Source of the DNA: Candidatus Enterousia sp.
Lineage (GTDB): Bacteria > Pseudomonadota > Alphaproteobacteria > Rs-D84
DNA: 64,000 nucleotides
Reading direction: 5' to 3'
Assembly (NCBI GenBank): GCA_045648925.1
Contig: JAZROY010000009.1
Coordinates: 1,062-65,061 of the forward strand
Below, piece by piece: positions 2,125 to 22,526 of this stretch; the first letter of the stretch is position 1, and each line of letters opens with the position of its first letter. The notes below the pieces were generated by a model, which was not told the DNA's origin, ran no database searches, and saw only the letters and a list, made by a program, of their open reading frames with translations. The position numbers and the translations under genes were made by a program.

Positions 2125-2200
2125 TCGGGCATAGTTCAGTCGGTAGAACAACGGACTGTTAATCCGTATGTCACTGGTTCGAGTCCAGTTGCCCGAGCCA
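2125..2200 (+). tRNA. tRNA-Asn(GTT)
   Basis: 76-nt cloverleaf: acceptor TCGGGCA/TGCCCGA, anticodon arm ACGGA-CTGTTAA-TCCGT, GGTTCGAGTCC T-arm, encoded CCA. Confidence 0.97.
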
Positions 2201-2202
2201 AG
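2151..2202 (+). repeat. attL of element A (3' part of tRNA-Asn)
   Basis: Identical to 22475-22526. Confidence 0.95.
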
Positions 2203-3470: not shown

Positions 3471-4205
3471 ATGAATCGCGACAATATAAGATTACCTGAA
3501 TTACGCTCTATATCATACACATTGCGGGACGCCTGTGAGCATTTAGCTTTTGGTCAAAAAACACTTAGGGAACAAGACCCAAAACCTGGCGAAATCGCAA
3601 TGCTGTGTGAGTTTTGGAAACGCACCAATCAATTTGATAGATATTTGTTAGAACCAGGGCATAACAGATATGACAAGGACGTACAAAGAGCTAGCAATGC
3701 GTTATATACCCTATTAAAAAATGGCACAATCATAGCAACATACAATGGACAAATCATACAACCAGAGACATGGCAAAACGAACTTAATCCTCTCGACATG
3801 TTAACCAATACCAATCCTTATCAAAATATAAAAATTGATGCAAAACAATTAGATATGGTGGCTCCCGTTAAACAATATACTGTTACACTCAAAAACAATG
3901 GGGGCCTTTATATTAATGACGGTGACACCGACACTAAAATATCTCAAACATACCCAGGTCACAAGAATTATGAATGGTTGAAGTTTTATTTTGAGCACCC
4001 AAAGTGTAAAATATCTAAACAAATTGTAATTAAACGTTTTAACAATACTGAATACAAATACGAAGAAGACGATAAAATTTCCCAGTGCGTATTCGCCGCA
4101 TTCAGCAAGAAAGCACCGTTAATGCATTGTTGTTTTCCTATTTGTGGTACAAAAGAGGTTTGTTGCACGCCCACATTTACAAGTACAGACATATTTATGT
4201 CTTGA
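3471..4205 (+). CDS. Hypothetical protein
   Basis: 244-aa ORF with no recognisable motif, followed by a terminator. Confidence 0.6.
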   Translation: MNRDNIRLPELRSISYTLRDACEHLAFGQKTLREQDPKPGEIAMLCEFWKRTNQFDRYLLEPGHNRYDKDVQRASNALYTLLKNGTIIATYNGQIIQPETWQNELNPLDMLTNTNPYQNIKIDAKQLDMVAPVKQYTVTLKNNGGLYINDGDTDTKISQTYPGHKNYEWLKFYFEHPKCKISKQIVIKRFNNTEYKYEEDDKISQCVFAAFSKKAPLMHCCFPICGTKEVCCTPTFTSTDIFMS

Positions 4206-4232
4206 TTAAGAATAATAACTATTAAACCACTC

Positions 4233-4258
4233 AGCGGTTGCATTTAAGCCGCTTTTTT
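4233..4258 (+). terminator. Intrinsic terminator
   Basis: AGCGGTT...AGCCGCT stem followed by T-run. Confidence 0.65.
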
Positions 4259-4362
4259 ATTGTAAAAAATAGCACTTTATTAACAAAAACTATTTTTCCC
4301 ACATAAACAAAATTCATCGCTATACTCCGAATGTAATCAAACAGAATCGAAAGGTATAAACG

Positions 4363-4572
4363 ATGATGGAAATAAATTTAAACAATCATTTAATGGACCA
4401 AAAAACCGCGGCATCCTATTTGGGTACCACTGTTGGTTCATTAAATGTGTGGCGAGCAACAGGGAAACATAAAATTCCATACGTTCGCTTTGGTCATTGC
4501 ATAAGATACAAAAAAGAAGATTTGGACGCTTGGATAGATGCACACACATTAAACAAGAATCCAACGGTATAA
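4363..4572 (+). CDS. Excisionase-like HTH (HTH_17/MerR-like) of element A
   Basis: LMDQKTAASYLG...LNVWR...IPYVRFGHCIRYKKEDLDAW winged-HTH pattern. Confidence 0.85.
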   Translation: MMEINLNNHLMDQKTAASYLGTTVGSLNVWRATGKHKIPYVRFGHCIRYKKEDLDAWIDAHTLNKNPTV

Positions 4573-4583
4573 AAAAATACCAA

Positions 4584-4988
4584 CGTTCTGTATTTTCGTC
4601 GTAAGAGAGCCTGGCGTTTAAAACCGGGTGAGCCGCTTACAGCCACTGGGTACAGAACGATAAAGCACTTACAGGGGATTTCGTGAGGTGCAGGCAGGTT
4701 TGTGAGCAAGGATGCCTCGAAAGGTTTATCAAGAAACCAAAAGCCTTGCAGTTGATTATTCGGCTTGAAGAAGCACACTGAAACGAAGTAAGCGTGAAAA
4801 CCGCTGAAGCGTGTTGATGACGAATAGACTTAGGTAGGCGTGAGCCGCAAAAAGACGCAAGTCCTGACACTATGCACGCCCTTGATGGAACCTATTGGCT
4901 GGAATTCAAAAATAGGGAACAAATCTTTTTTTGGGTTCCAGTCGGTAGGGGTTACTGTATCTCCTTCTGATAGAGTATGAGTAACCCC
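4584..4988 (+). ncRNA. Candidate large structured non-coding RNA / cis element
   Basis: No credible ORF; dense nested stems (4584-92/4651-59, 4948-56/4980-88, 4827-31/4859-63) and GNRA hairpins GGC-GTGA-GCC and GAC-GCAA-GTC; visibly more GC-rich than flanks. Confidence 0.55.
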
Positions 4989-5024
4989 GCAGAACAAACT
5001 TTAACAAAACAAAAAGGATTAAAA

Positions 5025-5348
5025 ATGGCAAATTACAATCCTGATACATCTGGTTTAATATCGTTGGCAGACAGACCGAACAACGAAAGAACAACGATAG
5101 CAACACAAGGTGGTATCGCTTCTGGAAAAAAACGAGCAGAAATAAAACGAATGTCTGAGATTGTTATGGGGCTTCGTCAAGAAAGCGAAGAAGACCCTGT
5201 TGCAAAATCTATAAAGTTTTTATTTTTTGATTTGACCAATCCTCTAACATCAATACCTGATACTGTAAAAGGGTTAAAATTTATAAAAGAACTCTGTGAA
5301 GAAGACCCCTCTAATCCGCCTTGCAATAAAACAGATGATGAATTGTGA
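5025..5348 (+). CDS. Phage terminase small subunit-like protein (KGG-type N-terminal motif)
   Basis: LISLADRPNNERTTIATQGGIASGKKRAEIKRMSE resembles the phage motif NLIP..ER...EIARKGGIASG..RR; AAGGA RBS before ATG 5025. Confidence 0.55.
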   Translation: MANYNPDTSGLISLADRPNNERTTIATQGGIASGKKRAEIKRMSEIVMGLRQESEEDPVAKSIKFLFFDLTNPLTSIPDTVKGLKFIKELCEEDPSNPPCNKTDDEL

Positions 5349-5387
5349 TAGTAAAACTTTTATCGCAATACGTTAATTATTACGTTT

Positions 5388-5915
5388 CTACACAGATAAT
5401 CGTGTTAACCGAACACCTTGATACATAAAATGGTCTGCACCACGAACAACGGGGGGCAAAAAATGTTTGTCCATATCTTTATAAAGTTTTAACGCCAATT
5501 GCGATAATGTATATTTTATACCATTATATTCAACTTCACATTTCCCGATAACTGTTACCTTGATATTAGGGTCGCCAACAAATGTTAAAATATCACCATC
5601 TTTAATACCTACTCTATACATACTAAATGGTGGTTTTGTTTTTTGCGGATTGAATGCATGTTTGGCCGCGACGGCCGACATTGTATATAATTCTGTTTCG
5701 CCAACACGATATTTTTCAAGCCACAACAATGTACCATCTGCATCACTTTCTGTATCAAAAACCTTTTTATAATATGGTTTTAATCCAAACACATTTTTAT
5801 AACCATTTACAGAAAAATCGTGCATTAACGCATCATAATTATCTGGTGTGGTTTTACCTAACTTAACAAGTCCACGAACAGAAGTCGTCATAATATACAG
5901 GATGCATTTTGCCAT
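5388..5915 (-). CDS. T5orf172/GIY-YIG-like nuclease with C-terminal RAMA-like domain (copy 1)
   Basis: LYIMTT...VKLGKT N-terminus; GIKDGDILTF...EYNG..TLSQLA...GADHFMYQG..L C-terminus. Confidence 0.7.
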   Translation of the reverse strand: MAKCILYIMTTSVRGLVKLGKTTPDNYDALMHDFSVNGYKNVFGLKPYYKKVFDTESDADGTLLWLEKYRVGETELYTMSAVAAKHAFNPQKTKPPFSMYRVGIKDGDILTFVGDPNIKVTVIGKCEVEYNGIKYTLSQLALKLYKDMDKHFLPPVVRGADHFMYQGVRLTRLSV

Positions 5916-5984
5916 TACTTAATCCTTTGTTTAAATATTATTTTTGACCAATTTTCGAAATCTTTAACATTTTTTAATGTGTAT

Positions 5985-6452
5985 TTAATCTAAACGTTTT
6001 TGTAATTTAATTTCCCAACATTTTGGCAAATTCAAATCATTTTTTTTAGTTGTAATACTAATAGATGAAATTTTATACTTCGCGGTTACATTCGTATAAC
6101 CTTTATGAAAAACAACTGTATCGTAATGCTTATTATAAAACCGTTTATTCCAATACTTAGAACATTCACGATATTCTGATGTCTTTTTGCCAGATACAAT
6201 TTTATCAAACCAACGGTGCTGTAAAACAAGATGTAATTCATTTATATTTTTATCAGAAACACACGCAAGAATTAATGCAATAATCCATGTTATACCAAAA
6301 AAAACACCAAGCCACGACAAAATAGTTATCGCGGTCAAATTGCTACCCCTAACACCCTTTCCCTTTGCAATACTTATCGGCACATTTATTATTGTGTAAA
6401 AAAGCCATAATAAAATAACTATTAATAAAACTTCCCAAAAACCACCTCGCAT
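5985..6452 (-). CDS. Superinfection-immunity (Imm)-like membrane domain fused to ASCH/PUA domain
   Basis: N-terminal two hydrophobic segments ...SNLTAITILSWLGVFFGITWIIALILA; C-terminal LHLVLQHRWFDKIVSGKKTSEYRE..YW..RF..YDTVVFHKGY. Confidence 0.6.
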   Translation of the reverse strand: MRGGFWEVLLIVILLWLFYTIINVPISIAKGKGVRGSNLTAITILSWLGVFFGITWIIALILACVSDKNINELHLVLQHRWFDKIVSGKKTSEYRECSKYWNKRFYNKHYDTVVFHKGYTNVTAKYKISSISITTKKNDLNLPKCWEIKLQKRLD

Positions 6453-6463
6453 CTCATCCTCCT

Positions 6464-7060
6464 TTATAATTTTGTTAATCTGGTCCCTTTATACAAGAAA
6501 TAATTAGCCCCCTGATATCTCTTACTAGGGTTTGCCTTACCCATGTCTTCATAAAATTTCAGTGCCAGCGGTGACAGTTTATATATAACACCATTATATT
6601 CCACTTCGCGTTCACCAACGACCTTGACCTTTATGCTGTGGTCATCAACAAATGTCAATATGTCACCTTTCTTAATTCCATGTTCATACATATTAAACAA
6701 CTGCCCCTTCTTTCTGGTGGCTGCAATTTGTTTTATTTGAACAGTCTTTGGCGTTCCATCTTTTGGAAATATTACATTACCAGAGAAAGCCAACAACAGC
6801 TGCTTTGCCTTATCTGGTTCCATGGAATACAATTCACTACTCCCAAGCCGTATAAACGTGAATAAATCCTTTAACAACCCTTCAGTTTCTTCATAATTTT
6901 CAATCTCTATTGCAAAATATGGTTTTAGCCCCGATACATTTGCATAACCATTTTGTGATAAATGACGCATCCGTTCTGGATAGTTTTTGGTGTTTGCGAT
7001 ACCGATTTTTATCACTCCAGACACAGACGTTGTCATAATATAAAGAACACCTTTTGCCAT
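6464..7060 (-). CDS. T5orf172/GIY-YIG-like nuclease with RAMA-like domain (copy 2)
   Basis: MAKGVLYIMTTSVSGVIKIG; paralogue of 5388-5915. Confidence 0.72.
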   Translation of the reverse strand: MAKGVLYIMTTSVSGVIKIGIANTKNYPERMRHLSQNGYANVSGLKPYFAIEIENYEETEGLLKDLFTFIRLGSSELYSMEPDKAKQLLLAFSGNVIFPKDGTPKTVQIKQIAATRKKGQLFNMYEHGIKKGDILTFVDDHSIKVKVVGEREVEYNGVIYKLSPLALKFYEDMGKANPSKRYQGANYFLYKGTRLTKL

Positions 7061-7089
7061 TGTTTGCTCCTTTATTTGTCAGTTGTGTT

Positions 7090-8016
7090 TTACAAATACT
7101 TTTTAAATGTTTTTTTCATTTTCAACATAGTATCAACCAACCAATTAAATTGTTCTGGCCATTGGTTTTTATCTTCAAAATCAGCCTTCCTTGCTGCGAT
7201 AATTCTGCTTCCTTTTTTATCAGGCAACTCTTTCCATTCAAATTTTAAACCTGTGTCTGCTTCTATCTCTTTTTTATGTTGCAGCAAAGAATCAAACAAA
7301 CTTTTATCATCATCAATGTACAATTCAACGTTTAATTCATTACGCTTCTGAATTCTTGAAACTGCTAAATGAGCCCCAGAAAAACCAATACTGAAATTTT
7401 TCCAGTGGTCAAAAGATGGTTTTCTGCGTCTAAAATTCTCTGCAAACACTTTGTTTTGAAACGCATAATCTTGAAAATCCACCCAAAAATCGTAACGTTT
7501 TTGTTCTGTTTCGTTGCTGGTATTATTTTTCTTCATTTCTTTGGACCAATCGTTTGGCTGTTCAACAACTTCAAATTTAACCGCTGGTTCTGATTGACCG
7601 ATTTTATACAACTTTATTTCGCAAAGAAAAAAATTAATACCTTTATCTGTGTGAGCATTAAGCCATTCGATTGCGGACCTGTGTTCTTCCCTTGCACGTT
7701 TTACAACCCATATAACAATATCAGCAGATTTACCAGATGCATATGTAATTAATTTTCCTAAATGTTCGTGATTGGTATCTTCTAACTGATTTTCAATAAT
7801 AATTTTACGGTCTGTACCAGTTTCATAGGCGTATATGTCTGCACGATAGCCACCAACTGGTGTTTCCGTTCCATTTACAGAAATATCTATGCCGACAGCA
7901 TCTGAAAGCAATGCAATGTTGTCATCACTTGCCAACCAAGGCGTAAAATCTAATGCTTCCTTTGGCCATATTTTTCTCAAATCACGAATTTCTTCCAATT
8001 TATTTAATTTCATCAT
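7090..8016 (-). CDS. DUF4268 protein with N-terminal PD-(D/E)XK (NucS-like) nuclease domain
   Basis: RADIYAYE...IIIENQLEDTNHEHLGKLITY catalytic-like pattern; DUF4268-like C-terminus. Confidence 0.8.
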   Translation of the reverse strand: MMKLNKLEEIRDLRKIWPKEALDFTPWLASDDNIALLSDAVGIDISVNGTETPVGGYRADIYAYETGTDRKIIIENQLEDTNHEHLGKLITYASGKSADIVIWVVKRAREEHRSAIEWLNAHTDKGINFFLCEIKLYKIGQSEPAVKFEVVEQPNDWSKEMKKNNTSNETEQKRYDFWVDFQDYAFQNKVFAENFRRRKPSFDHWKNFSIGFSGAHLAVSRIQKRNELNVELYIDDDKSLFDSLLQHKKEIEADTGLKFEWKELPDKKGSRIIAARKADFEDKNQWPEQFNWLVDTMLKMKKTFKKYL

Positions 8017-8031
8017 TGTTTTTTCCTTTGT

Positions 8032-8319
8032 TTATAAGTAATGCAAAATTACACTGATAACAATTGCAACGGCAGATGTCCATATCGCCAATTTTGCCAA
8101 AAATTTACTATCCTGGGCCACTTTCAAACTCTGTTGGGCAATTTCATTATTCTTCTTGGTTTCTTCAACAGCAGCTTGGGATAACTGCTTCATTTCGGCG
8201 TTATACTGCTGCAATTGGCTTTCCTTAACATCTTGAATATGCTGTTGACGCTCTTGTTCTTTCACATAATCAGCATAACCTTGTGCCGTATTAAATTGAG
8301 GCTTACCAGAACCAAACAT
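8032..8319 (-). CDS. Small coiled-coil protein with C-terminal transmembrane helix
   Basis: Q/E-rich helix then LAIWTSAVAIVISVILHYL. Confidence 0.55.
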   Translation of the reverse strand: MFGSGKPQFNTAQGYADYVKEQERQQHIQDVKESQLQQYNAEMKQLSQAAVEETKKNNEIAQQSLKVAQDSKFLAKLAIWTSAVAIVISVILHYL

Positions 8320-8368
8320 TTTTTACTTCTCCCAACTTCGACTATAAATCGTATTAAAACGATATTTT

Positions 8369-9097
8369 TTATTTATCCCAATTTTGATAACTTAAAATAA
8401 ACCTGTTCAAATCTGCTTTAGTTGATTGCCACTTGGGCAGATTGGCGTTCAGAATTTGTATAAACCTTTCGTTATGCGTTCTTTCTATTAGGTGTATCAG
8501 TTCATGAACAACAACATATTCTATACAAACAATCGGTTTTTTTGCTAATTCCAGGTTAAAAAGGATAGTCTTATTTTTATGATTACAAGTTCCCCACTTA
8601 GTTTTCATTTCTTTGATTTGCCAAGTTTTTGCTTGAACATTTAACTTCTTTTGCCATGCTTCCACCAATTCTGTAAGAACAGGTTTTAATTCCTGTCGCA
8701 ACCAATCATTAAATACTTCCGATTTCTTATCGGAACTTGTATCAGGTCTTGTTTGCAATATTATTTTTGTCTTGCCTTTTAAAAACACTTTGGGCGGTTC
8801 GTTTTTGTATATTAGTTCAAGTTTATATTTTCTACCCATAAAGTATACCGCTTCGCCAGATACATATTCTCTTTTTGTTTGTCGTTCCTGTGCTTTAAAA
8901 TTCTTTTGTTGTTGTTTTATCCACGGCAATTTAACTGCAAGCATAGACCTAATTGCATTTTCATTCATATCTAATGGTGCAGAAACTCTTACCCTGCCAT
9001 CAGGGGGCAAAACCGCCAAATGCAGGTGTTTGATTGGTTTGTAAACAACCAACGCTTCAATACTGCCCAGTTGTAAATATGAACTAGAATTCACCAT
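8369..9097 (-). CDS. M48/YgjP (DUF45) metallopeptidase-like protein associated with Type I R-M
   Basis: VVVHELIHL (HExxH), KWGTC; overlaps hsdR stop. Confidence 0.88.
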   Translation of the reverse strand: MVNSSSYLQLGSIEALVVYKPIKHLHLAVLPPDGRVRVSAPLDMNENAIRSMLAVKLPWIKQQQKNFKAQERQTKREYVSGEAVYFMGRKYKLELIYKNEPPKVFLKGKTKIILQTRPDTSSDKKSEVFNDWLRQELKPVLTELVEAWQKKLNVQAKTWQIKEMKTKWGTCNHKNKTILFNLELAKKPIVCIEYVVVHELIHLIERTHNERFIQILNANLPKWQSTKADLNRFILSYQNWDK

Positions 9098-12000
9098 TTT
9101 GAACCACTAACTCCAACAATTTTTCAAGTTGTTCGTCCGATATGTTGCTATTATCTGCCAAAAGCTTTTTTACCATTCTGCGTTTCATTGGGTTGCCCCG
9201 CCAATCCGCTGGTGCTTTACTTTTTATAGCATCATAAACATTCAACGCCAAGGCAACATCTTCATCAAAGAAATCATACAATGCTTTTTTCCCATTGGTG
9301 TCAATGCCATCTATTTTATCGTTAATCGGGTTTATAACTTTCTGTGCCAAATCAGATATTTGATTCAAATAATCACGATACGCTATGTCATTTTGTTTTC
9401 TTTTCTTTACCAATTCGGTCAACAGCACTGACATCTTTTCGTAATATTTTGGATTTGTCTGTTGTTTATCGCTGATGATTCTGCGTATATTATTTTCAAT
9501 TACAGAAGATGTCGACGACCTGGCGTTTTTCTGCGACGCATCCTTTTGTGCCTGTGTAATAAAATTCAGCAAACCATTATTATTAAAATTACTCAACACT
9601 TCGCTGTCTTTTGCTAACACATACTGGTCAAACAGATTTCGCATATCTTTATCGTATTTCTTCAAATCAATATAATCACCACTGGCCATCTTAATTTCCT
9701 GACTAATGGTTTTGTAGTGTTTTACCTTTTCTTTAATTTCTTCCGCTGCTTTCTTTGAATAACCTGCCGCATGCATTTCCCCTGCCAACGCTTCGTATTT
9801 GCGTCCCAGCGATGCCACCAGCTTATATAAGTTCTGCCGTTTATGCTCGTTTTCTCTCAAAGAATGAACATTTTCGGTATCCCCGCAGAAGTAGTAGATG
9901 TATTCAGGCAAATCTCTTGGTGCTGGAACAGGTTCGCAAAGTGCTTCCACTGCTTGTAATGCAGTTTCCAAATCTTCTTTACCTTGCTCTACTTTATCTT
10001 TTAACAAACCAACAACGTCATCGGCATCAAAGCCACCGAATGCATCGCCAGTATAATCACTAACTGATTTCTGCAGTTTCTTAAACAAATCACGATAATC
10101 AACGATATAGCCGTAATCCTTGTTCAAGACCGCACCTTCTTCAGAATCATTCTCGTCTTTATCATCTAACCTATTAACACGACATACCGCCTGAAACAAC
10201 CCATGGTCTTGCATATTTTTATCAATATACAAGTATGTGGCACTGGGTGCATCAAATCCAGTCAATAACTTATCCACAACTATCAGCAGTTGCATTTGCC
10301 CTGGGTATTTCTTGAATATCTTTTTAGTTTCCTTTTCAAAATCTTCGGCTGACTTACCGTTCAGCATTTGCTGATATATCTGATATTCTTGCGAAGTAGT
10401 ATCCAATGCATTGGGTTCATACGATGTAACAACCGCACACTTTGTCAGATAACCCCTGTCTTGGAATATTTTGTAATACTGACACGCCTCAAAAATACTG
10501 CTTGCAACCAACATGGCATTACCACGACCAGATTTCAATCTTGGTTTTGTTTCAAAGTCGGTTTCAATATCAATTACAATCTTTTCCATTCTGGTCTTAG
10601 AAGACATCAGGTTCTGCATTGTTCCCCATCTTTTCTTCAATTCCATTTTGGCAGTATCGGTCAATGTGGCTGTTTTACGGTCAAACCATTCATCAATTTT
10701 CTCTTGTGATGAAATATCTTGTTCAACGGCTCTTGCTTCATACCGCAAATCCAATACAACACCATCTCTAACCGCTTGGTCATACTTATAGGTGTGAATT
10801 GGTGTCCCCCAAACCTTAAAACTGTTCTTCTTATCAATTTTCAGTAACGGTGTGCCAGTAAATCCGATAAATACTGCTGAATCACCCAGCAGTTCATTCA
10901 TCGCATCGTGCAATTTACCACTGTGCGAACGGTGGCATTCATCCACAAATACATATATCTTGCCTTTTGGCGAAAAATTAGTTGGCAGGTTTTTGCGAAG
11001 TTCGCTGATATCAATATCATATGTTGGTTCACCACTGGTATTCGTTACACGACCAAATTTATGCACCAACGAACATAACAATCTTTTGTCTTTCGTATTC
11101 AATTCCGCAAACAACTGTCTGCTGTTCGGTGCTCTCCAGATTTCTTCATCAACCCCATTGAATACCAGTTCAATTTGTTCATCCAGTTCAGTTCGGTCTG
11201 TGATAATCAAAATCCTAGCATCATGATTGTGCTCCAATATCCACTTTGATAGCCACACCATTGTCAGCGATTTACCAGACCCCTGTGTGTGCCAAATTAT
11301 TCCACCCTTATCTTCTTGTATTCTCTGCTGTGCCGCCTTTACACCGAAATATTGATTGTGGCGACAAGTTTTCTTCACGCCTGCATCAAACACAATAAAT
11401 TCATGAATAATTTCTATTATGCGGTCTTTGTTGCATAATTCGGTTATCTGACGGTCAAGCTTGCATTTGGCAACCATATCAGACGGATTTTCCTCTCTCC
11501 ATTCCAACCAATATTTTTCTGGGGTTTCTGTGGTCGCATATCGCAACCCTTCGGTATCATTACCAGCCATCAACAACTGCATTGTTGTAAAGAATGGTTG
11601 AATATATTCTGGTCTTTGATTACCAATATTTTGTTGAATTCCTTCTGATACAGATACAACACTTCGTTTCAATTCAATGATACCAACAGCAATACCGTTG
11701 ATATACAGAACGATGTCTGGTCTTTTTTCTGCTTGGCCATATACAGTAACTTCTTCGGCGATTGCAAAATTATTTTTTGTTGGTTCATCCCAATCAATCA
11801 GATAAACGGTTTTTTCTTTGCTGTCGGCAGATTCTTTTACCTTTACGCCATAACGAAGCATGGAATAAACCGCCTTGTTCTTTTCAAAGAAATTATCACC
11901 GTGTGCGATGGCACTGTTCTTTACGAATTCTTTTATTGCCTTTTGAATCAGTGTATCGGAATATTTTCCTTTCAGGTACTGTTCCAGCAATTCCGTTTCA

Positions 12001-12122
12001 ATGTTGCTGTTGTTTTCCCTGTCCTGCCAATTTCCCAGATAGTCATATTTCAGCACATTATGAAATAATTCAACCACACGGTTCTGGGTTTTTCTTTCTA
12101 ATTGACCAACTTCTATAGACAT
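9084..12122 (-). CDS. hsdR: Type I restriction endonuclease subunit R
   Basis: RPDIVLYING..IIELK nuclease motif, HTQGSGKS, VDECHRS, FTGTP, LLTGFD, QAVCRVNR. Confidence 0.95.
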   Translation of the reverse strand: MSIEVGQLERKTQNRVVELFHNVLKYDYLGNWQDRENNSNIETELLEQYLKGKYSDTLIQKAIKEFVKNSAIAHGDNFFEKNKAVYSMLRYGVKVKESADSKEKTVYLIDWDEPTKNNFAIAEEVTVYGQAEKRPDIVLYINGIAVGIIELKRSVVSVSEGIQQNIGNQRPEYIQPFFTTMQLLMAGNDTEGLRYATTETPEKYWLEWREENPSDMVAKCKLDRQITELCNKDRIIEIIHEFIVFDAGVKKTCRHNQYFGVKAAQQRIQEDKGGIIWHTQGSGKSLTMVWLSKWILEHNHDARILIITDRTELDEQIELVFNGVDEEIWRAPNSRQLFAELNTKDKRLLCSLVHKFGRVTNTSGEPTYDIDISELRKNLPTNFSPKGKIYVFVDECHRSHSGKLHDAMNELLGDSAVFIGFTGTPLLKIDKKNSFKVWGTPIHTYKYDQAVRDGVVLDLRYEARAVEQDISSQEKIDEWFDRKTATLTDTAKMELKKRWGTMQNLMSSKTRMEKIVIDIETDFETKPRLKSGRGNAMLVASSIFEACQYYKIFQDRGYLTKCAVVTSYEPNALDTTSQEYQIYQQMLNGKSAEDFEKETKKIFKKYPGQMQLLIVVDKLLTGFDAPSATYLYIDKNMQDHGLFQAVCRVNRLDDKDENDSEEGAVLNKDYGYIVDYRDLFKKLQKSVSDYTGDAFGGFDADDVVGLLKDKVEQGKEDLETALQAVEALCEPVPAPRDLPEYIYYFCGDTENVHSLRENEHKRQNLYKLVASLGRKYEALAGEMHAAGYSKKAAEEIKEKVKHYKTISQEIKMASGDYIDLKKYDKDMRNLFDQYVLAKDSEVLSNFNNNGLLNFITQAQKDASQKNARSSTSSVIENNIRRIISDKQQTNPKYYEKMSVLLTELVKKRKQNDIAYRDYLNQISDLAQKVINPINDKIDGIDTNGKKALYDFFDEDVALALNVYDAIKSKAPADWRGNPMKRRMVKKLLADNSNISDEQLEKLLELVVQNGEF

Positions 12123-12125
12123 TTT

Positions 12126-13313
12126 TTACTCCTGTGGCTTTACCAAGCGAATTCTGCCAGATAACAATTCGCCTGCAACACCCGATTTAATCTGTTTATA
12201 TTTGTTTATTTTATCATTTATTGCAGAAATTTCATCATCCATATCCGCAAGAATATCTGTAATAGCTTTTTGTTCTGTAAAATCATCTGGTAATAATAAA
12301 GAAAATTTATTTAATGCTTTCTGCTGAATGTTCGGCAATCCAGAACCAACGCGTAAAGTCATTAGTTTGTTTTCATTATATTTTAATAATTGATATAAAA
12401 AACTTTTGTTTACACAACCACGACAAATTAACGTATAACAGTGCCCACCAGCCCAAAATTTTGTTTTTATAAAATTAACAAAACCACACGAATTTCCTCC
12501 TTCGCTTATTATTATAGTATCCGCAACATTGTTATATTCATTTGTAAAACCAGATTCCGTCATCCCCCCATTATAAACGGGATACCCAGCTTCTACCATA
12601 TTTAACCTGTTTAATTGGGTTCCTTTGGTTATGTCTGCAACCTCACCTAATTTTACCTTTTTCCAAGGTTTATTAAAACCTGGCATACGACGCTTACCAG
12701 TTAACAATTCCTGCATAACACCTGTTTTAATGGCGATTTTCTTGTCCCTGACACGTTCCAGTTCCGCAATCAAATCATCAACACCCGTCAAAACATCCGC
12801 TATTTTCTGCTGTTCTGGAATAGTAGAGGGGACAGGAACAATAAAGTTTTTTATATCACCATTTGTAATTTGATTTATAGTTGCTCCCAATGTGATTTTT
12901 ATTTGTTCCTGTATATAAAAGGATTGCCATAAAAACAACAGGAATTCTGGAGAACATTTATTTGCTCTTAAAACCGTCATAAATGCACCAAAAGCCATTC
13001 CATTTCCAACGACTTTTGCAGATTTTCCTATTAATCTGGCACTGCCATTTCTAACACAAACTAATACATCACCATCGTGTGCCATTGCCCGATTAGGAAT
13101 TTCCATTTTTACAAAAACATTATCATAAAAAGACAGACGTCCTTGATTTATGTTGGATGAGCGTAAAACCAAAGTTCCAGATTCAGAAACAGATTTAGGG
13201 CTATATGTTAACCCAGTATAATTATCACAAATATCTGATAAATTCGCAACACTCCAATCGCTGGGAATTTTTCCAATATCAGTATTTTTCCAAGATGTTG
13301 TTCTGTATGCCAC
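12126..13313 (-). CDS. hsdS: Type I restriction-modification specificity subunit S
   Basis: Two TRDs with conserved P...EQQKIADVL and EQKAITDIL...ELLSGRIRL repeats. Confidence 0.93.
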   Translation of the reverse strand: MAYRTTSWKNTDIGKIPSDWSVANLSDICDNYTGLTYSPKSVSESGTLVLRSSNINQGRLSFYDNVFVKMEIPNRAMAHDGDVLVCVRNGSARLIGKSAKVVGNGMAFGAFMTVLRANKCSPEFLLFLWQSFYIQEQIKITLGATINQITNGDIKNFIVPVPSTIPEQQKIADVLTGVDDLIAELERVRDKKIAIKTGVMQELLTGKRRMPGFNKPWKKVKLGEVADITKGTQLNRLNMVEAGYPVYNGGMTESGFTNEYNNVADTIIISEGGNSCGFVNFIKTKFWAGGHCYTLICRGCVNKSFLYQLLKYNENKLMTLRVGSGLPNIQQKALNKFSLLLPDDFTEQKAITDILADMDDEISAINDKINKYKQIKSGVAGELLSGRIRLVKPQE

Positions 13314-13315
13314 GT

Positions 13316-15781
13316 TTAAAATCCCATATCTTTCAAGTGTTGCTTCACTTTTTGTTCCAAATCATTGGCCTTTGATTCTATTTCTGACAGTGTTTCAGAA
13401 TATCTGTCTGCCAATTGTTGAACCGAACTGGTCAAATTGGTTTTCTGTTTTTCAATCAAATCGTCCAGGTTGAATTCAAGTGTTGCAGACCATTTAACAT
13501 CCACAACCAAATGTTTAATTTCATCCACCGTCAAATTGACATATTTTTCCATGATTTGTTTTTCAAGCGATGCTTCTATTTTTTTGATAGAATCTTTAAC
13601 TTGCTTTTCTTGGTCTAACAAATTTGAATATCTTGTTAAACACATCTTTTCTTCTTCATCAATCTTTTCTTTTAACCGTTCCTTTAACCTTTTGTTATCA
13701 ACAGTAATTTTAATCTCTTTATCATCTTTCGACGACTCGTCATCATCATCTGTTTGTTTCTTTTTTATCACTTCTGTTAACAAACCATTGTCGCCAGATT
13801 CTTCCTCTATCATCGATATTTTCTCTGATTGAATTTCAGATAATTTTTCCTTGAAACCAATCAATTTTTGATTATCGTCATCGAAATATTCTGTTATTAC
13901 CAGTTCTGTTGGTATCAATGCCCCTTCAAGCCCATACAGTCCATCGACATCTTTTGTGACAACGCTTTTATCTTTCTTTTTGGTTTCTTTCTGCAAACGA
14001 ACCAATGAACGCCCTGCATCTTGCCAACCATATGATTTAATCAAATAACAATCATCGGCCATCGTTTCATTCCAATAGTTCCGCAATATCCCATAAATAT
14101 CATATTTTTCTACCAGTGCCGATTTATCAAACTTTGCCAACACACTTGACCCCAGTTCTTGAATCAAATCCTTTGGGTTATCATCGTTGCACAAACCCTT
14201 TAGTTTACTGTCAACTGACAAAATCCAATTGTTGAACATATCATGTATATTCTGGCGGAAATTCGTGAATTCGCTGTTGTTTGCGATTGTTTCAGCGATA
14301 TCATTAGTTTTCATCTTTGAAAAACCAGCCCTGTCACCACTAAATAAATCAGACTTCAATGTTGGACACACCGACCAATACTGGTTTAATTCATTAATAT
14401 CGGCGTCAGATATTCCACCATTAAGATGTGCATCTATGTTCTGGATAATCTCATCGCTTTGTTTCGCAATGTATCTTGGGATATTCAGGTTGAACCCATT
14501 AGCGGCAATTTCATCATCGCTGACGAACCGCGAATAATGTGGAATTTCAATTTGGTTCAAGAAAGTATCAGTGATTTTACGAATATCTTGTTCCCGCAAT
14601 CTGTTCTTCGCCCCATCTTTGATATAATCTTTTGACGCATCAATAAAGAATATACCTTTGTGATTTTCCATATTTGGCTTATCTAATACGATAATGCATG
14701 CTGGAATACCTGTGCCATAGAATAGATTAGACGGTAAACCGATAATTCCTTTGATGAAACGAATGATATTTTTCCTAATGGTTTCTTCCGCTCCACCTCT
14801 AAATAACACACCATGTGGTAAAATAACAGCACCACGACCTTTACCAGGTTTTAAGGATTTCAATATGTGCAACAAGAAAGCATAATCGCCATTCTTTTCT
14901 GGTGGAATTCCGAAACCGTCGAACCGTTCATATTGGTCGTCTGAAGGATTAAAACCATCGGTCCATGTCTTATACGAAAAAGGTGGATTAGCAACGACAT
15001 AATCAAAGGTCTTTAAACTGCCATTCTGTTCCGCAAATAATGGAACTGCCAAAGTGCTTTGTCCACCTTTTATGTCAGCAGTTGGTCTGCCGTGCATCCA
15101 CATATTCAGAATCGCCAATGATTTAGTTGTATTATCCTTTTCCTGACCGTAAATGGTTATATTCGGTGCTTCATCTGAAATCTTTAACAACAGTGACCCA
15201 CTGCCACAAGTCGGGTCATATACGGTATCCTGCGGTGATGTTGATTCATTCGCTTTGATAACCTTTGCCATTATTCTGGACACTTCTGCTGGTGTATAAA
15301 AACTGCCTTTACTTTTACCAGATTCAACAGCAAAATTGCCAATAAGATATTCGTATGCATCGCCAAGTAAATCATCACCACTGGCATTATTATTAGAAAA
15401 ATCAAGTTCCGGGTTTTCAAATATAGCAATCAAATTGGTCAAACGGTCAACCATTTCCTTGCCTTTACCCAATTTATCTTCATCATTAAAACTTACTCTA
15501 TCAATAACGCCATTCAAAGCATTTTCCGTGGCCAACTTTGACAACACAATGTCAATACCTTCACCTATATTTGGCTTGCCTTTTAATGCCACCAAATCTT
15601 TGAAACTGCCCCCCTGTGGAATCTGAACAATGTCATCTTTACCATCATATTTGTCTGTCAAATACCGAACAAAAAGCAAAACAAGAATATAATCTTTATA
15701 TTCGCTTGCATCCATACCCCCACGGAGAGCATTACACGCTTCCCACAAATGCTTATATAATTGTGATTTCTTTATAGCCAT
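13316..15781 (-). CDS. hsdM: Type I restriction-modification methyltransferase subunit M
   Basis: YDPTCGSGSLL motif I, VANPPF motif IV, LPHGVLFRG. Confidence 0.95.
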   Translation of the reverse strand: MAIKKSQLYKHLWEACNALRGGMDASEYKDYILVLLFVRYLTDKYDGKDDIVQIPQGGSFKDLVALKGKPNIGEGIDIVLSKLATENALNGVIDRVSFNDEDKLGKGKEMVDRLTNLIAIFENPELDFSNNNASGDDLLGDAYEYLIGNFAVESGKSKGSFYTPAEVSRIMAKVIKANESTSPQDTVYDPTCGSGSLLLKISDEAPNITIYGQEKDNTTKSLAILNMWMHGRPTADIKGGQSTLAVPLFAEQNGSLKTFDYVVANPPFSYKTWTDGFNPSDDQYERFDGFGIPPEKNGDYAFLLHILKSLKPGKGRGAVILPHGVLFRGGAEETIRKNIIRFIKGIIGLPSNLFYGTGIPACIIVLDKPNMENHKGIFFIDASKDYIKDGAKNRLREQDIRKITDTFLNQIEIPHYSRFVSDDEIAANGFNLNIPRYIAKQSDEIIQNIDAHLNGGISDADINELNQYWSVCPTLKSDLFSGDRAGFSKMKTNDIAETIANNSEFTNFRQNIHDMFNNWILSVDSKLKGLCNDDNPKDLIQELGSSVLAKFDKSALVEKYDIYGILRNYWNETMADDCYLIKSYGWQDAGRSLVRLQKETKKKDKSVVTKDVDGLYGLEGALIPTELVITEYFDDDNQKLIGFKEKLSEIQSEKISMIEEESGDNGLLTEVIKKKQTDDDDESSKDDKEIKITVDNKRLKERLKEKIDEEEKMCLTRYSNLLDQEKQVKDSIKKIEASLEKQIMEKYVNLTVDEIKHLVVDVKWSATLEFNLDDLIEKQKTNLTSSVQQLADRYSETLSEIESKANDLEQKVKQHLKDMGF

Positions 15782-15887
15782 TTTATTACCTTTGACTTAA
15801 ATTATACCAGATTATAGTCATATTTGTAATTTTTTGGAAGTAAAAAACATACCGCCAACAACCAACAATTACTTTCATATGCAAATT

Positions 15888-16367
15888 CTAGAGATACTTG
15901 CAGCATTTTAGAAATTCTTCTACCTCTTTATCTACTAATATGGGTTTAGATTGACTTGCGTCTGTTGCATAACGTCCTGACGTGTTTGCTACAATAAGCC
16001 CATTCTCTTGAAACGTCATATCATCTTCGTAAAAAATATCATTATCTTCTGGCGAAAGACCTATATAATCTTGTATCTCTTTATCATCTTCCCAACCCGT
16101 TGGGGCCATCATCATTTTATCTAATTGTCTTTCTTCTTCAAAAATCGTGTTTTCATACCAATCATCATAATATGCTTTTTCAGTATAAATATCATCGTTT
16201 TTAGATATGGGACAATGTACAATTGGTTTTTCGAAGTCACGGTAAGCACTAATTACATCTTTTGAACCACACCTGGAACATACAAAATTGTTAATATCTT
16301 TATTAAAGTCTGTTTTTATGTTTCCTGTGTGATTACACGCTAAACATTTACAATAAAAAATACCCAT
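15888..16367 (-). CDS. Hypothetical zinc-ribbon protein with acidic C-terminus
   Basis: CLAC...CSRC motifs. Confidence 0.6.
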   Translation of the reverse strand: MGIFYCKCLACNHTGNIKTDFNKDINNFVCSRCGSKDVISAYRDFEKPIVHCPISKNDDIYTEKAYYDDWYENTIFEEERQLDKMMMAPTGWEDDKEIQDYIGLSPEDNDIFYEDDMTFQENGLIVANTSGRYATDASQSKPILVDKEVEEFLKCCKYL

Positions 16368-16382
16368 AGCCAGAACCTTTAT

Positions 16383-16946
16383 TTATCCCTTCCAAATAAT
16401 CCCTGCATCTAATGCATCTTCAAGAGCTTGTTTAAAGTTGTTTTTGGTTATTTTTAATTGTTCATTCGCCACTAACTTTTTCATTGGTGGGTATCCGGGG
16501 GTACTCATTATAGCTGCTATTTCACTGCTAAAATCACCTTTGGATACACCACTATGCGGTACTGGACCAAATAGGATTAAGCAATAATCTCTGTTGTATT
16601 GTATTCTGGACATGTTGTATTTTTTTGCTTCAGCATACGACAATACGAATTCCAAACGATTTTTATCAATTCCTAAATCTTTTGCGACCGGTATTAATAA
16701 TTCTTTTTTGACTTGGGAATCGCCAACAATCAAAATCTTACCATTTTTGTCCACTTTGTATCCATCATCTGAATGCAACAAATCACCCATGCCCCACTTT
16801 TCCAACGCTTCTTCTAATTCTCCGGCACGATTTAAATCGCACAAAATCCGGGTTAAGTCATTGTCAAATCTTTGACGCAAGGTTTCTTCCAACGCTAAAA
16901 GTTCGGCCGTATCTAATAACATATTAATCCTCATAATTATCATCAA
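16383..16946 (-). CDS. Conserved-looking hypothetical protein, overlaps upstream methylase
   Basis: 187-aa alpha/beta ORF (KILIVGDS...LILFGPVPHS); overlaps methylase stop. Confidence 0.65.
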   Translation of the reverse strand: MMIIMRINMLLDTAELLALEETLRQRFDNDLTRILCDLNRAGELEEALEKWGMGDLLHSDDGYKVDKNGKILIVGDSQVKKELLIPVAKDLGIDKNRLEFVLSYAEAKKYNMSRIQYNRDYCLILFGPVPHSGVSKGDFSSEIAAIMSTPGYPPMKKLVANEQLKITKNNFKQALEDALDAGIIWKG

Positions 16947-18834
16947 ATACAGAATTCAAACGATTTGTCGCATCCTCCAATTTCAGCTTACAGACTTTAT
17001 ACTCATCTACCCTGGATAAATATGCTTTTGCTATTCTGTTTTGTACACTTAATGGCGGAACGGGAATATCCAAATTTTCCAGTTCTTTACGACTTATGTT
17101 GATTATTGTCGCCTGATTAGACCTACTGTTCAACAACGCTTTACCTTGCTGACTTTCCAAAAATACTTTGACATAATATGGATTTATGCGATTTGTATCC
17201 AATTCAATCACATACATATTACCAGACGGGACAATCTGTTGAACCCGCCACGATTCAAATTGTGGTTTTGTAAAAACAGCTATCTTGTATGGCTGACCAC
17301 TTTTTGAAATAATCAAATCATTTTCTTTCAATATCATCTTTGAAAATGTATCCGATTGTATAGTTTTATTAGGTAAAAACACGTCTGATAAATCACCATC
17401 AATTAAACCATTTTGTATATTTGATAATGACAAACATGGCACAGGGAAAGGTGTATCCACTTTTTCTGGTGACATTTTTCCATCATTATAAGAAATTCCT
17501 CTCCTAATCGAGATGATAAAATCACCAAATTTTTTGCAATTTTTAAACTTTATGCTTGGCGTTATGTATCTATTATAGTTAAGAACATAATCATTCTCTC
17601 TTAATTCTGATAAAGAAACAGTTTTGCTATATTCTGTATCATGATTAAGTCCTTCTAATATTCTTTCCACATACCCAAGGACAGATATCATGTTGTAATC
17701 TGTTTTTTCGACCATTTTTACACTTTTATTACCGTGACTAAATACTATCATGGTTGTTGCAATATTCGTGTCTGAGAACAAGCCCCCAGGCAATGCAATA
17801 ACCGCTTCTACCAATCCTTTTTCAACAAATTCTTTGCGAATTGCCATGTCAGCAGTATTCCAAACCGAACCATTACACATTATTGCGACAGCCTTACCAT
17901 TTTTGGACAAATGATTACATATCCAATTATTGAACGCCCAATCGCTAGATTTTCCTTTAGCCTCCAAACCTTGTGGCAAATACTTCAATCCAAACGGATA
18001 ATTAGCAAATATTTTATCAAATTTATTTGTGTCACAAATTCCTTTATCATAATCATAATCCACATTGGTAAAATCTCCACCAATATTATGTACTCCCAAC
18101 AAATGTGCCCTTAACATAGCTATTTCACGTTCTCTATCAGATATTTCATAGCCATAATATTTACCACCAGAAAAAATATTTGCATATTTACTTTCTGTAT
18201 ATCTTGCTAATTTACCCTTGTCGAACATTTTTTTCATAAAATTCGCTGTCCCACAACCCAAATCCATGACCTTGTCACCATTTTGTATGTTTAATATTTT
18301 TAAGGCCACCTCCATCACCACATCCGGGGTTCTGGAACTTTCGAGCGAAAAAAATGCCGTCTCTGCAAAAAATCTTTCATCATGTTGTTTATATTTATCT
18401 ATAAACTTTGCAAACTGTTTCCATATTGCTTGGTCTAAATATTTAGTACATAAATCCGTTACAATCTTTTTTATGCCATCATCGCACGGATAAGCATACG
18501 TTTTTTCATCAGCTTCAATGAAGTCGTCACACGAATTTTTACACACTTCAAACAGACTTGGCTTTTTTGTTGAATTATCCTTTTTCATCATTTTATAGGC
18601 TATAAACAACAAATATGACACAAGAACACCAATGTATTTATACCGTTGTTTGTTTGTTTGTCGCACGTATTCTTCATACAATTCTGTTATACATGTATGT
18701 AATTCTGGCACATCCATCAACGCATCAAAATAATCAACATCAAACTTATCAGACTGATTATTTGCAGAGTTTACATTATGGTTTGTAAAATCTAAATCCT
18801 TTAGAATCGAATTTAAAAATATTTCTTTTGACAC
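16924..18834 (-). CDS. N6-adenine DNA methylase fused to a HsdS-like TRD (M-S fusion)
   Basis: MDLGCGTANF motif I, FANYPF motif IV variant, EAVIALPGGLF; C-terminal TRD ending IPVPPLSVQNRIA. Confidence 0.85.
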   Translation of the reverse strand: MSKEIFLNSILKDLDFTNHNVNSANNQSDKFDVDYFDALMDVPELHTCITELYEEYVRQTNKQRYKYIGVLVSYLLFIAYKMMKKDNSTKKPSLFEVCKNSCDDFIEADEKTYAYPCDDGIKKIVTDLCTKYLDQAIWKQFAKFIDKYKQHDERFFAETAFFSLESSRTPDVVMEVALKILNIQNGDKVMDLGCGTANFMKKMFDKGKLARYTESKYANIFSGGKYYGYEISDREREIAMLRAHLLGVHNIGGDFTNVDYDYDKGICDTNKFDKIFANYPFGLKYLPQGLEAKGKSSDWAFNNWICNHLSKNGKAVAIMCNGSVWNTADMAIRKEFVEKGLVEAVIALPGGLFSDTNIATTMIVFSHGNKSVKMVEKTDYNMISVLGYVERILEGLNHDTEYSKTVSLSELRENDYVLNYNRYITPSIKFKNCKKFGDFIISIRRGISYNDGKMSPEKVDTPFPVPCLSLSNIQNGLIDGDLSDVFLPNKTIQSDTFSKMILKENDLIISKSGQPYKIAVFTKPQFESWRVQQIVPSGNMYVIELDTNRINPYYVKVFLESQQGKALLNSRSNQATIINISRKELENLDIPVPPLSVQNRIAKAYLSRVDEYKVCKLKLEDATNRLNSVFDDNYED

Positions 18835-18981
18835 GTTTAATCCTTTTGGTTATTGATAACCAGAATATACAACATCAAAAACGATTCGTCAAGAAAAATC
18901 TTTGGTTATTTATAACCAAAAACAACAAAATGGCCTCAAATTTTCATTAGAGGCCTATTTATAACATGTTGTGTTTTATTG

Positions 18982-19440
18982 TTATTTTTTGTCTGTTTCT
19001 GTGTCTTCAAGCGGCATTAAGTCCCAGTCTTCACCATCGCAACTTGGTAGATGATTTGGCTTATCTATCGGGAACACCCTGCCACAATGTAAACATTGTA
19101 CCATACCGCGATAAAGAGTACTTTCATCAACGTCTTCAACCACAGGTTCTTCTACGGGATTAGCGTCAACCTCATCATCCTCTAACCTTTCTGATTCTAA
19201 AACAGCCCTTGTGTAAGCCAAACGTTCTTCTGGTTCATGTAATAAATCTGACCACTTATCTCTACCCAGAGCCTGTGCCAATAGATGCTGGGCCTTCATC
19301 AGTGTTGGTTGTTCATCAGCTTTTACCCCATATAACCGAAATAGTTCTCGAATATCGAAAACAAATAACCGCTGTTCACGATTTTTCCAGTCTTTATAGA
19401 GATTTTTTGCTTGTAATTTGAAATATTCAATATGTGTCAT
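18982..19440 (-). CDS. Hypothetical protein, N-terminal helical domain plus C-terminal Cys/His cluster
   Basis: FKLQAKNL...KAQHLLAQALG..W; CLHC...HLPSC; AAGGAG RBS. Confidence 0.65.
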   Translation of the reverse strand: MTHIEYFKLQAKNLYKDWKNREQRLFVFDIRELFRLYGVKADEQPTLMKAQHLLAQALGRDKWSDLLHEPEERLAYTRAVLESERLEDDEVDANPVEEPVVEDVDESTLYRGMVQCLHCGRVFPIDKPNHLPSCDGEDWDLMPLEDTETDKK

Positions 19441-19639
19441 AACATACTCCTTTAGTTTTGTTGCGGGATTATTATCTAGAAATTTGGCATCCGTAATCTG
19501 TAGTTTAGATAATAAAGCCCATTAAAGGGTTATGTTATCTTTGTTGGATGATAATATCTTCGCACGGACGAGCTAGCCTCCCAACAGGCATATTAGCAGT
19601 GTAACATAAGAACAACAAAAAATCAATACATTTTAACTC

Positions 19640-20356
19640 TTAATCTACGTATTGTTCCTGTGCCAGTTCCAGTAGCATTTTTCCGTTATCATATATTTCA
19701 TCTGAGGTCACCATATGAAGATACGAAGCAACGTACAAATCTAACAACCCCATATATACAGAGGATATTTCGCGACCTGTTGTCTTAACATATGACCTCG
19801 ATGCAGTAAAACACATATCTAAACGACCAAAACTGTCTTTTGTTACTGAATTTCTGCCTCCGGTATCTTTCGGAAAAAAGAAAAGTTTATTATATTGCAA
19901 ACACATTATACGCTTTCGCATTACTGGGGAGTATTTTGATATCTCCGTTACCCCCTTATCGAAGCCATACAACGGCAACAAAAACAATGATTGTTTGTTC
20001 AACGCGGGTACAGCATTATCATTTTCTGTTGGCTTTTCTATATTTTCATTTTCTACACTTAAAACCACACAAGGACGCATTTTTGCCTTATTTACCAACA
20101 ATTCCTCATTTATTCGTAGTCCAATATTGTACACCGGAAGTGTCGTTGCCTGTTGTCTAAAATGCTTATCATAATCCAACTTCTCTATAATGAAATTACC
20201 ACCATCATGCGTATCAATGTCAACACTGTTTCTTTCCACGCTCAACACAAATCTTGTCGAATCCATAAATAATACCGGTGTAAAAACAATACTTCCCTTT
20301 TTTATACCCGAAGTAACGGCATCATTATAAAAAGACTCCATTTCCCACCAGTTCAT
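19640..20356 (-). CDS. PemK/MazF-like toxin candidate
   Basis: KAKMRPCVVLS...LFLLPLYG matches the PemK K.RP.(V/L)VLS...VPL pattern; 4-nt overlap with upstream antitoxin. Confidence 0.6.
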   Translation of the reverse strand: MNWWEMESFYNDAVTSGIKKGSIVFTPVLFMDSTRFVLSVERNSVDIDTHDGGNFIIEKLDYDKHFRQQATTLPVYNIGLRINEELLVNKAKMRPCVVLSVENENIEKPTENDNAVPALNKQSLFLLPLYGFDKGVTEISKYSPVMRKRIMCLQYNKLFFFPKDTGGRNSVTKDSFGRLDMCFTASRSYVKTTGREISSVYMGLLDLYVASYLHMVTSDEIYDNGKMLLELAQEQYVD

Positions 20357-22474: not shown

Positions 22475-22526
22475 ACGGACTGTTAATCCGTATGTCACTG
22501 GTTCGAGTCCAGTTGCCCGAGCCAAG
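22475..22526 (+). repeat. attR of element A / attL of element B (duplicate 3' two-thirds of tRNA-Asn)
   Basis: Exact 52-bp copy of 2151-2202; lacks D-arm and 5' acceptor strand. Confidence 0.95.

Follow-up and report, generated by a model that had tools for sequence, protein, structure and literature searches.

The window, by which we mean the whole 64-kb stretch of DNA analysed here, contains an integrated island bounded by perfect 52-nt direct repeats, with an att-to-att spacing of 20,324 bp. The left repeat lies inside a tRNA-Asn(GTT) gene and the right one is the displaced 3' part of that tRNA; only two copies of this tRNA-Asn 3' repeat occur within the window. Reading the + strand from attL, the island begins with a DUF4238 gene, followed by a gene for a 244-aa protein, an AlpA/Xis-type HTH_17 gene, a structured gap and the TerS-like ORF that is the subject of this report. 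A tyrosine integrase gene occupies the far end. The main features of the locus are the following:

2125..2200, + strand: tRNA-Asn(GTT), the integration target (ARAGORN and Rfam)
2151..2202, + strand: attL, 52-nt perfect repeat, inside tRNA-Asn
3471..4205, + strand: 244-aa protein with no assigned function, upstream of alpA, conserved only in the closest relatives
4363..4572, + strand: AlpA/Xis-type HTH_17 protein, putative excision activator (Pfam HTH_17, 2.7e-8; phrog_66 excisionase; TIGR01764)
4584..4988, + strand: region without genes that folds strongly, flanked by alpA and the TerS-like gene, candidate large structured RNA
5014..5018, + strand: Shine-Dalgarno-like AAGGA, 6 nt before the ATG at 5025 (read from sequence)
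5025..5348, + strand: TerS-like gene, 107 aa (ORF and conserved start)
5109..5135, + strand: codons of the GGIASGKKR motif, residues 29-37, inside the predicted helix 19-53
5388..21051, - strand: variable defence cargo (Pfam; hsdR, hsdS and hsdM from sequence motifs only)
21129..22313, - strand: tyrosine integrase, Arm-DNA-bind_3 and Phage_integrase (Pfam), at the far end of the island
22475..22526, + strand: attR, 52-nt perfect repeat, displaced 3' part of the tRNA

The first-pass annotation had described the 107-aa ORF as an orphan TerS-like gene that directly follows a structured region and is unaccompanied by TerL, portal or capsid genes. The position after a structured region is borne out by the stretch 4584-4988, which is gene-free and folds more stably than shuffled sequence (fold z = -3.94); no Rfam family matched the region upstream of the TerS-like gene. 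The same stretch is a possible location of a pac site, and scans for repeats and hairpins across 4200-5450 returned nothing above chance. The orphan status also holds for the island, since terminase, portal and capsid domains were found in none of the 17 island ORFs scanned (the domain scan set aside the hsdRSM genes and two small ORFs). Neither the immediate surroundings of the TerS-like ORF nor the rest of the island and of the 64-kb window contain a terL, and the absence of an adjacent terL is as expected of a satellite-borne terS. Among the same 17 ORFs we detected no primase, replicase or relaxase domain, and the island contains no recognisable origin. The 244-aa protein encoded upstream of alpA is 50% identical to its counterpart beside the TerS-like gene of a related locus (L005), and it matched nothing in Pfam, PHROG or NCBIfam, nor any phage or plasmid.

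On the 3' side, the TerS-like ORF is followed by a T5orf172-like gene on the opposite strand (5388-5915). The cargo as a whole comprises two T5orf172 genes, an ASCH gene, a DUF4268 gene, a type I R-M hsdRSM operon, an M-S fusion methylase and a Panacea antitoxin module. Overlapping the 3' end of hsdR by 14 nt is a 242-aa ORF (8369-9097, - strand) that contains HELIHL, an HExxH motif, and presumably resembles the metal-dependent hydrolase that often accompanies type I R-M operons. The T5orf172-ASCH-T5orf172 cassette (5388-5915, 6464-7060) shares 99% protein identity with a cassette in a metagenome island (L002:2957-4639), despite the TerS-like protein of that island being only 68% identical to the source ORF, a discrepancy that points to recent exchange of cargo between islands.

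The 107-aa protein and its family

A search of 5.8 billion proteins recovered only 23 homologues of the 107-aa ORF, all of them unnamed metagenome proteins of 93-141 aa. Every one of these (23/23) shares the Met-Ala-Asn start, which fixes the start codon at 5025 and rules out the upstream ATG at 4977. In the resulting 24-sequence family alignment, conservation is high over the first ~58 residues and the C-terminus is variable; the invariant columns are G29, G30, S33, G34, K36 and R37, and the signature NL.sL..R...E...IA..GGIASG..RR is found family-wide. Pairwise dN/dS values of 0.07 (against L005) and 0.21 (against L002) indicate that the ORF is a real gene under purifying selection. It is the only copy of the family in the source genome, which measures 0.88 Mb in 11 contigs. 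An acidic C-terminal tail (..DDEL, ..GDDEI, ..TDDL) was considered as a candidate TerL-docking peptide and rejected: the tails are mostly acidic, but they are not conserved.

Pfam and NCBIfam scans of the 107-aa ORF gave no match. In PHROGs it matched phrog_2412, a family labelled 'unknown function', with an E value of 5.8e-5 and residues 9-55 aligned to profile positions 5-54 of 150. A tblastn search of 50,697 phage records produced a sole match (E 0.1), to a protein annotated as hypothetical in Streptococcus phage Javan174. This Javan174 protein belongs in full to phrog_2412 (E 4.8e-50), and its relatives are present in 75 phage records. Profile-to-profile comparison strengthened the connection. 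Aligned by hhalign to 8 Streptococcus-phage members, the 24-sequence family scored 94.9% (E 4.6e-8) over the N-terminal 53 columns, and against 15 phage-type relatives it scored 98.3% (E 1.4e-14) over 82 columns, covering residues 7-94 of 107. As the latter alignment extends beyond the shared motif, it makes the ORF a family member over nearly its whole length, and by these profile matches the ORF is a short, divergent member of phrog_2412.

The wider family is small. When 1.84 billion cluster representatives were searched exhaustively with a profile, only 81 proteins were recovered at E<=1e-3, of which 71 were aligned together with the query ORF. In this 72-sequence alignment, phrog_2412 was matched by 64 sequences (best 5.5e-26) and DUF5681 by 10. 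NCBIfam returned nothing for the phage-type relatives, PDB sequence searches with three family profiles found neither a TerS nor any other relative, and nothing useful was found in the literature on DUF5681 or on the MM1 small terminase.

A confident AlphaFold2 model based on the 72-sequence alignment (pLDDT 91.5) predicts an elongated, all-helical protein of TerS size, with an N-terminal arm and helices at residues 19-53, 58-70 and 77-91. The first-pass annotation had singled out GGIASGKKR as a KGG-like helix motif. Its helical placement agrees with the model, in which residues 29-37 fall within the 35-residue helix 19-53, but the likeness to KGG is only a loose one: Pfam KGG (PF10685) gave no match to the 107-aa ORF at E<=1, and matched 7/72 wider-family members and the Streptococcus phage homologue weakly, at E about 1e-4. 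Foldseek searches of PDB (with models of pLDDT 65 and 91.5) and of BFVD (with the 91.5 model) yielded no significant match, an elongated oligomer protomer being a poor query; the small terminases of NV1, PaP3 and E217 were among the top PDB matches, all at E>1. We regard the predicted structure as compatible with TerS and as nothing more.

The genomic position of the family in phages is far more informative for its function. We scanned IMG/VR with the phage-type alignment, obtaining 262 matches, and kept 80 loci. Many of these are near-duplicates, and the downstream large ORFs that were clustered (mostly TerLs, some portals) form ~16 clusters at 70% identity. The 80 loci were distributed as follows:

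57/80: family gene directly adjoins a TerL homologue (-28 to +41 nt)
18/80: family gene in the same reading frame as TerL (fusion)
3/80: family gene 0.45-1.8 kb from a TerL homologue
2/80: no recognised TerL

In 75/80 viral-contig loci, then, the family member is either directly upstream of terL or fused to it in frame. The 18 fusions comprise at least three sequence types, and Pfam confirmed three independent ones, all on IMG/VR gut viral contigs:

L057:3480-5039: TerS-like::TerL fusion, 519 aa
L088:3486-5057: TerS-like::TerL fusion
L071:3492-5015: TerS-like::TerL fusion

The first of these consists of a TerS-like part (~residues 5-103), Terminase_3 (137-334) and Terminase_3C (368-509). The other two have the same build, so that all three join a TerS-like part of ~100-115 aa to a complete Terminase_3/Terminase_3C protein, and in each the fusion is followed by a portal gene.

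Streptococcus phages present the same arrangement. In Javan174, EJ-1, MM1, Javan488, Javan377 and phiNIH1.1 the family gene is directly upstream of terL, which is followed by a portal or minor capsid gene, and in Javan174 it overlaps the terL start. In Javan394 the family match overlaps the terL annotation, as judged from feature overlap. Adjacency to terL was thus found in 7/7 Streptococcus phages examined, and the family gene is annotated as a terminase in 0/7. Three examples, each 5' of terL and annotated hypothetical, are:

L010:1977-2432: MM1 ORF30
L008:2468-2929: EJ-1 ORF38
L013:1956-2438: phiNIH1.1 p27

By its position just 5' of terL, this gene is the small terminase of MM1, EJ-1 and phiNIH1.1. 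Javan248 and Javan103, two predicted satellite prophages (10-13 kb) whose records are titled 'Streptococcus satellite phage', have the family gene but no terL, and the satellite records Javan106, Javan109 and Javan342 also match the family.

On one viral contig (L100:3143-3917) two different TerS-type genes stand in tandem. The first encodes a Terminase_2-like protein of 122 aa (..LDATKAAMYAGIPEKSA..) and overlaps the gene for a phrog_2412-like protein of 138 aa; a 962-aa ORF occupies the terL place after the pair.

Adjacency at this scale, together with natural fusions, identifies the family, by position, as a small terminase. Synteny and fusions provide strong genomic evidence that phrog_2412-type proteins are the TerS partners of Terminase_3/6N-type TerLs, and their kinship with the source ORF makes it very probable that the latter is a TerS-family protein.

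Islands and prophages in Candidatus Enterousia

The family was found in 25/301 genomes of the order, a patchy distribution that fits a mobile gene. We extracted 20 loci from related genomes (sheep and other gut samples), and these fell into two contexts, one prophage-like and the other island-like. In the prophage-like context, represented by four loci, the family gene overlaps terL in 4/4. Terminase_3/6N was confirmed for the overlapping terL in two of them (L049, terL at 10290-11753, and L051). In L050 the overlapping gene (8403-9779) has a weak Terminase_3 match (E 1.9e-4, just under the Pfam cut-off) and is followed by a T7-type portal, and in L052 the 481-aa neighbour (10447-11892) has homologues that are named terminase and carry PF03237.

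The TerS-like identity proposed in the first-pass annotation is therefore upheld by near-full-length homology to proteins that are encoded directly 5' of terL or form one polypeptide with TerL, prophages of the same genus included. The checks suggested for it included the neighbourhood of homologues and the fold. With TerS structures appearing at E>1 only, Foldseek offered no significant match; the homologues, however, do adjoin terL, and since it would take both a family never adjacent to terL and an unrelated fold to overturn the call, the TerS assignment stands. The alignment of the TerS-like protein with prophage copies from the same genus is confined to the N-terminal ~40-50 residues.

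In the island context, alpA is followed by a gap of 0.45-0.6 kb, the TerS-like gene, unrelated defence cargo, and finally an integrase or serine recombinase. The order alpA, gap, TerS-like gene, variable cargo and integrase recurs in about 20 related loci, and in the 13 related loci with a strong AlpA match the AlpA homologue lies 0.45-0.6 kb upstream of the TerS-like gene. These related islands span ~6-20 kb, and their far-end integrases are 49-90% identical to that of the source island. Their cargo is completely different among relatives that have the same core: in three metagenome contigs it consists of type ISP R-M with a PIF1 helicase, of a DNA methylase with Z1 and AIPR, and of GmrSD, respectively. 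The invariant position beside alpA indicates that the TerS-like gene belongs to the mobility core of the islands and not to the cargo. In the family tree, island capture is represented by at least three supported clades, a lower bound given a backbone without resolution. No island-type copies were present in IMG/VR.

The gap slot itself is not always filled by the folding stretch. In three loci (L047:10462-10854, L048:10501-10893, L053:9389-9793) a Phage_rep_O/HTH_36 protein of 130-134 aa is encoded there, downstream of alpA and upstream of the TerS-like gene; L054 has a DUF3631 protein in the same place.

Proposed packaging of the island and its relation to known satellites

SaPIs are a familiar example of satellites with an orphan terS: SaPI-type PICIs encode their own TerS, which redirects the TerL of a helper phage to their own pac site. 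By analogy, we consider redirection of a helper TerL by the island's TerS-like protein, as the first-pass annotation had also proposed, to be the best explanation of the locus, with moderate confidence, and the island probably travels in helper phage capsids. In such a scheme, a helper phage with a Terminase_3/6N-type TerL would infect or be induced; AlpA and the integrase would excise the island; and the TerS-like protein would bind island DNA at a putative pac site, perhaps in or beside its own gene, and pass it to the helper TerL for headful packaging into helper capsids. Every step of this sequence, namely DNA binding, ring formation, contact with the helper TerL, excision and packaging, is inferred. 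In favour of redirection are a real, selected gene, homology to proteins in the TerS slot, a fixed place in the core, and an island without TerL, portal or capsid. Against it, the C-terminus that would be expected to dock onto TerL is not visibly common to the same-genus prophages, the candidate helpers. Headful packaging also normally needs concatemers, and the lack of a recognisable replication gene in the island counts against this reading. The source genome (11 contigs) contains no Terminase_3 TerL, and neither an excised circle nor an empty-site joint was seen in the public data, which consist of low-depth metagenome contigs only; a look for virome and RNA runs found none. The lack of island-type copies in IMG/VR and of a conspicuous pac-like repeat also counts against redirection.

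The gene could also serve defence. The TerS-like protein might co-assemble or compete with the same-family TerS of an infecting phage, poisoning or misdirecting its packaging, so that the population would be protected whether or not the island itself were transferred; we judge this proposal unlikely. SaPIs and PICIs also interfere with helper packaging, via Ppi and Rpp, and the rest of the island consists of defence genes. The protein further combines the N-terminal helical region of a phage TerS with a shorter, divergent C-terminus, as a dominant-negative subunit might. The gene is located, however, in the invariant core beside alpA and outside the swappable cargo, and interference and self-packaging are not mutually exclusive.

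A further reading, to which we likewise assign a low probability, is that the DNA-binding module of a former TerS has been exapted as a nucleic-acid-binding regulator of the island's life cycle and takes no part in packaging. It might, for instance, act together with the large RNA encoded upstream or, by analogy with P4 epsilon, as an antirepressor. This would suit the basic, KGG-like motif, the constant company of alpA and a large structured RNA, and the restriction of homology with same-genus phage copies to the N-terminus. Yet the three loci in which a Rep_O/HTH_36 protein replaces the RNA (L047, L048 and L053) keep the gene, which is thus not tied to the RNA, and homology to phage TerS spans residues 7-94, more than a binding motif.

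The source genome also holds particle genes of its own, outside the window:

C6:24055-35609 (L056:3055-14606): T7-type head gene cluster

This cluster encodes a scaffold protein, a Phage_capsid_2 capsid, a T7 tail-fibre N-terminal domain and a Head-tail_con portal, and the genome's only terminase-like and portal matches sit on this contig. Its TerL is split into a Terminase_6N ORF (C6:29578-30213) and an RNaseH-domain ORF (C6:33437-34360), with three reverse-strand genes, including one for a DnaB-like helicase, lying between the two. Of 121 genomes of the genus, 114 have the capsid gene, nearly always as a single copy and intact in all but a few; its identity is 79-99% except in three fragmentary or interrupted copies. 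Such conservation suggests that the C6-type head cluster may be a domesticated GTA-like particle system. We therefore also weighed a speculative and very unlikely alternative in which the island TerS feeds these genus-wide resident T7-like particle genes rather than an infecting phage, the island being a passenger of the domesticated particle. The presence of the cluster in the source genome, the near-universal single-copy capsid gene and the lack of a same-family TerS in the C6 cluster or elsewhere in the genome outside the island would accord with it. Set against these is the TerL split with its three intervening reverse-strand genes; the family pairs with several TerL types, but a pairing with the C6 TerL is conjectural, as is the production of particles. 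We hold it very improbable that the Enterousia islands (6-20 kb) form a distinct class of replication-less 'minimal hitchers', composed of Int, AlpA, a large structured RNA and a new-family TerS, which use the resident T7-like capsid, portal and terminase set and would thus be selfish, targeted passengers of a domesticated GTA-like particle.

That the ORF is a decaying prophage terS remnant without present function is disfavoured and has hardly any probability in our view: its length of 107 aa as compared with ~115-160 aa in phage versions and its orphan state would agree with decay, but dN/dS of 0.07-0.21, the conservation of the start and of the invariant motif across 24 sequences, and a syntenic position fixed in many islands all speak against it.

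Helper TerL redirection, the preferred reading, invites comparison with SaPI1 and SaPIbov1. Like the source island, these are integrative islands with int and an excision regulator, carry an orphan terS (TerS-S) without terL, portal or capsid, and have as the presumed job of that gene the redirection of a helper TerL to island DNA. The proteins nevertheless belong to different families, SaPI TerS being Terminase_2-like and the source ORF having no Pfam family. The source island also differs in having neither a pri-rep module nor capsid-remodelling genes, in its larger size (20.3 kb) with mostly defence cargo, and in its host, an alphaproteobacterium with a 0.88-Mb genome. Of the features by which PICIs and SaPI-type elements are recognised, the island has an integrase with att sites, AlpA, and a terS-like gene without structural genes; a primase or replicase of its own and an origin were not found (17 ORFs scanned). 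As the replication module that defines PICIs is missing, 'SaPI-type PICI' is an analogy and not a statement of membership. The rep-type proteins in the gap slot of L047, L048, L053 and L054 recall the PICI order int, alpA, rep, terS.

Closer in sequence are the phrog_2412 proteins of Streptococcus phages and satellites (MM1 ORF30, EJ-1 ORF38, Javan174_0037), which share the N-terminal signature and the helical core, and the predicted satellite prophages Javan248 and 103 resemble the source island in carrying the family gene without terL. These proteins differ from the source ORF in their length of 144-160 aa, a longer, non-aligning C-terminal half, their Firmicutes hosts and their annotation as hypothetical.

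Two groups of marine or Vibrionaceae elements were also compared. In the PICMIs of Vibrionaceae the defining genes are int, alpA and one for a primase, and terS is lacking (PMC10803314). They resemble the source island as minimal islands around int and alpA with defence cargo and without capsid-remodelling genes, but the source island has a terS-like gene and no primase. We rejected PICMI membership, given that the primase is mandatory for that group (PMC10803314), that none was found in the source island and that PICMIs are without terS. The marine VEIMEs are likewise integrative elements with AlpA, and in some of them a TerS homologue is encoded whose closest resemblance is to the TerS of phages that occur alongside (PMC9618062). 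They come from another habitat and lineage and were recovered from virions, whereas the source island, here as in the comparison with SaPIs, is known from genes alone. The source island is thus neither a canonical PICI nor a PICMI.

The use of an orphan satellite terS is an established trick, and its novelty here lies in the host, a reduced-genome gut alphaproteobacterium, and in the stripped-down form, a core of Int, AlpA, a large RNA and TerS that carries defence cargo of up to 15 kb. Also new is the recognition of the family as TerS. It gives a function to a PHROGs family labelled 'unknown function' and absent from Pfam and NCBIfam, synteny and fusions pointing to phrog_2412-type proteins as the TerS of many phages from the gut and from Streptococcus, MM1 and EJ-1 among them. 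The compactness and conservation of the core formed by alpA, the large RNA and terS make it a tractable experimental unit. Candidatus Enterousia is a genus of uncultured gut alphaproteobacteria whose genomes measure ~0.9 Mb, and the findings suggest a way in which its defence islands that lack a conjugation or replication module could move: they may hitch-hike by means of their own TerS. The case is thus relevant to the spread of 'orphan' genomic islands, a matter of current interest.
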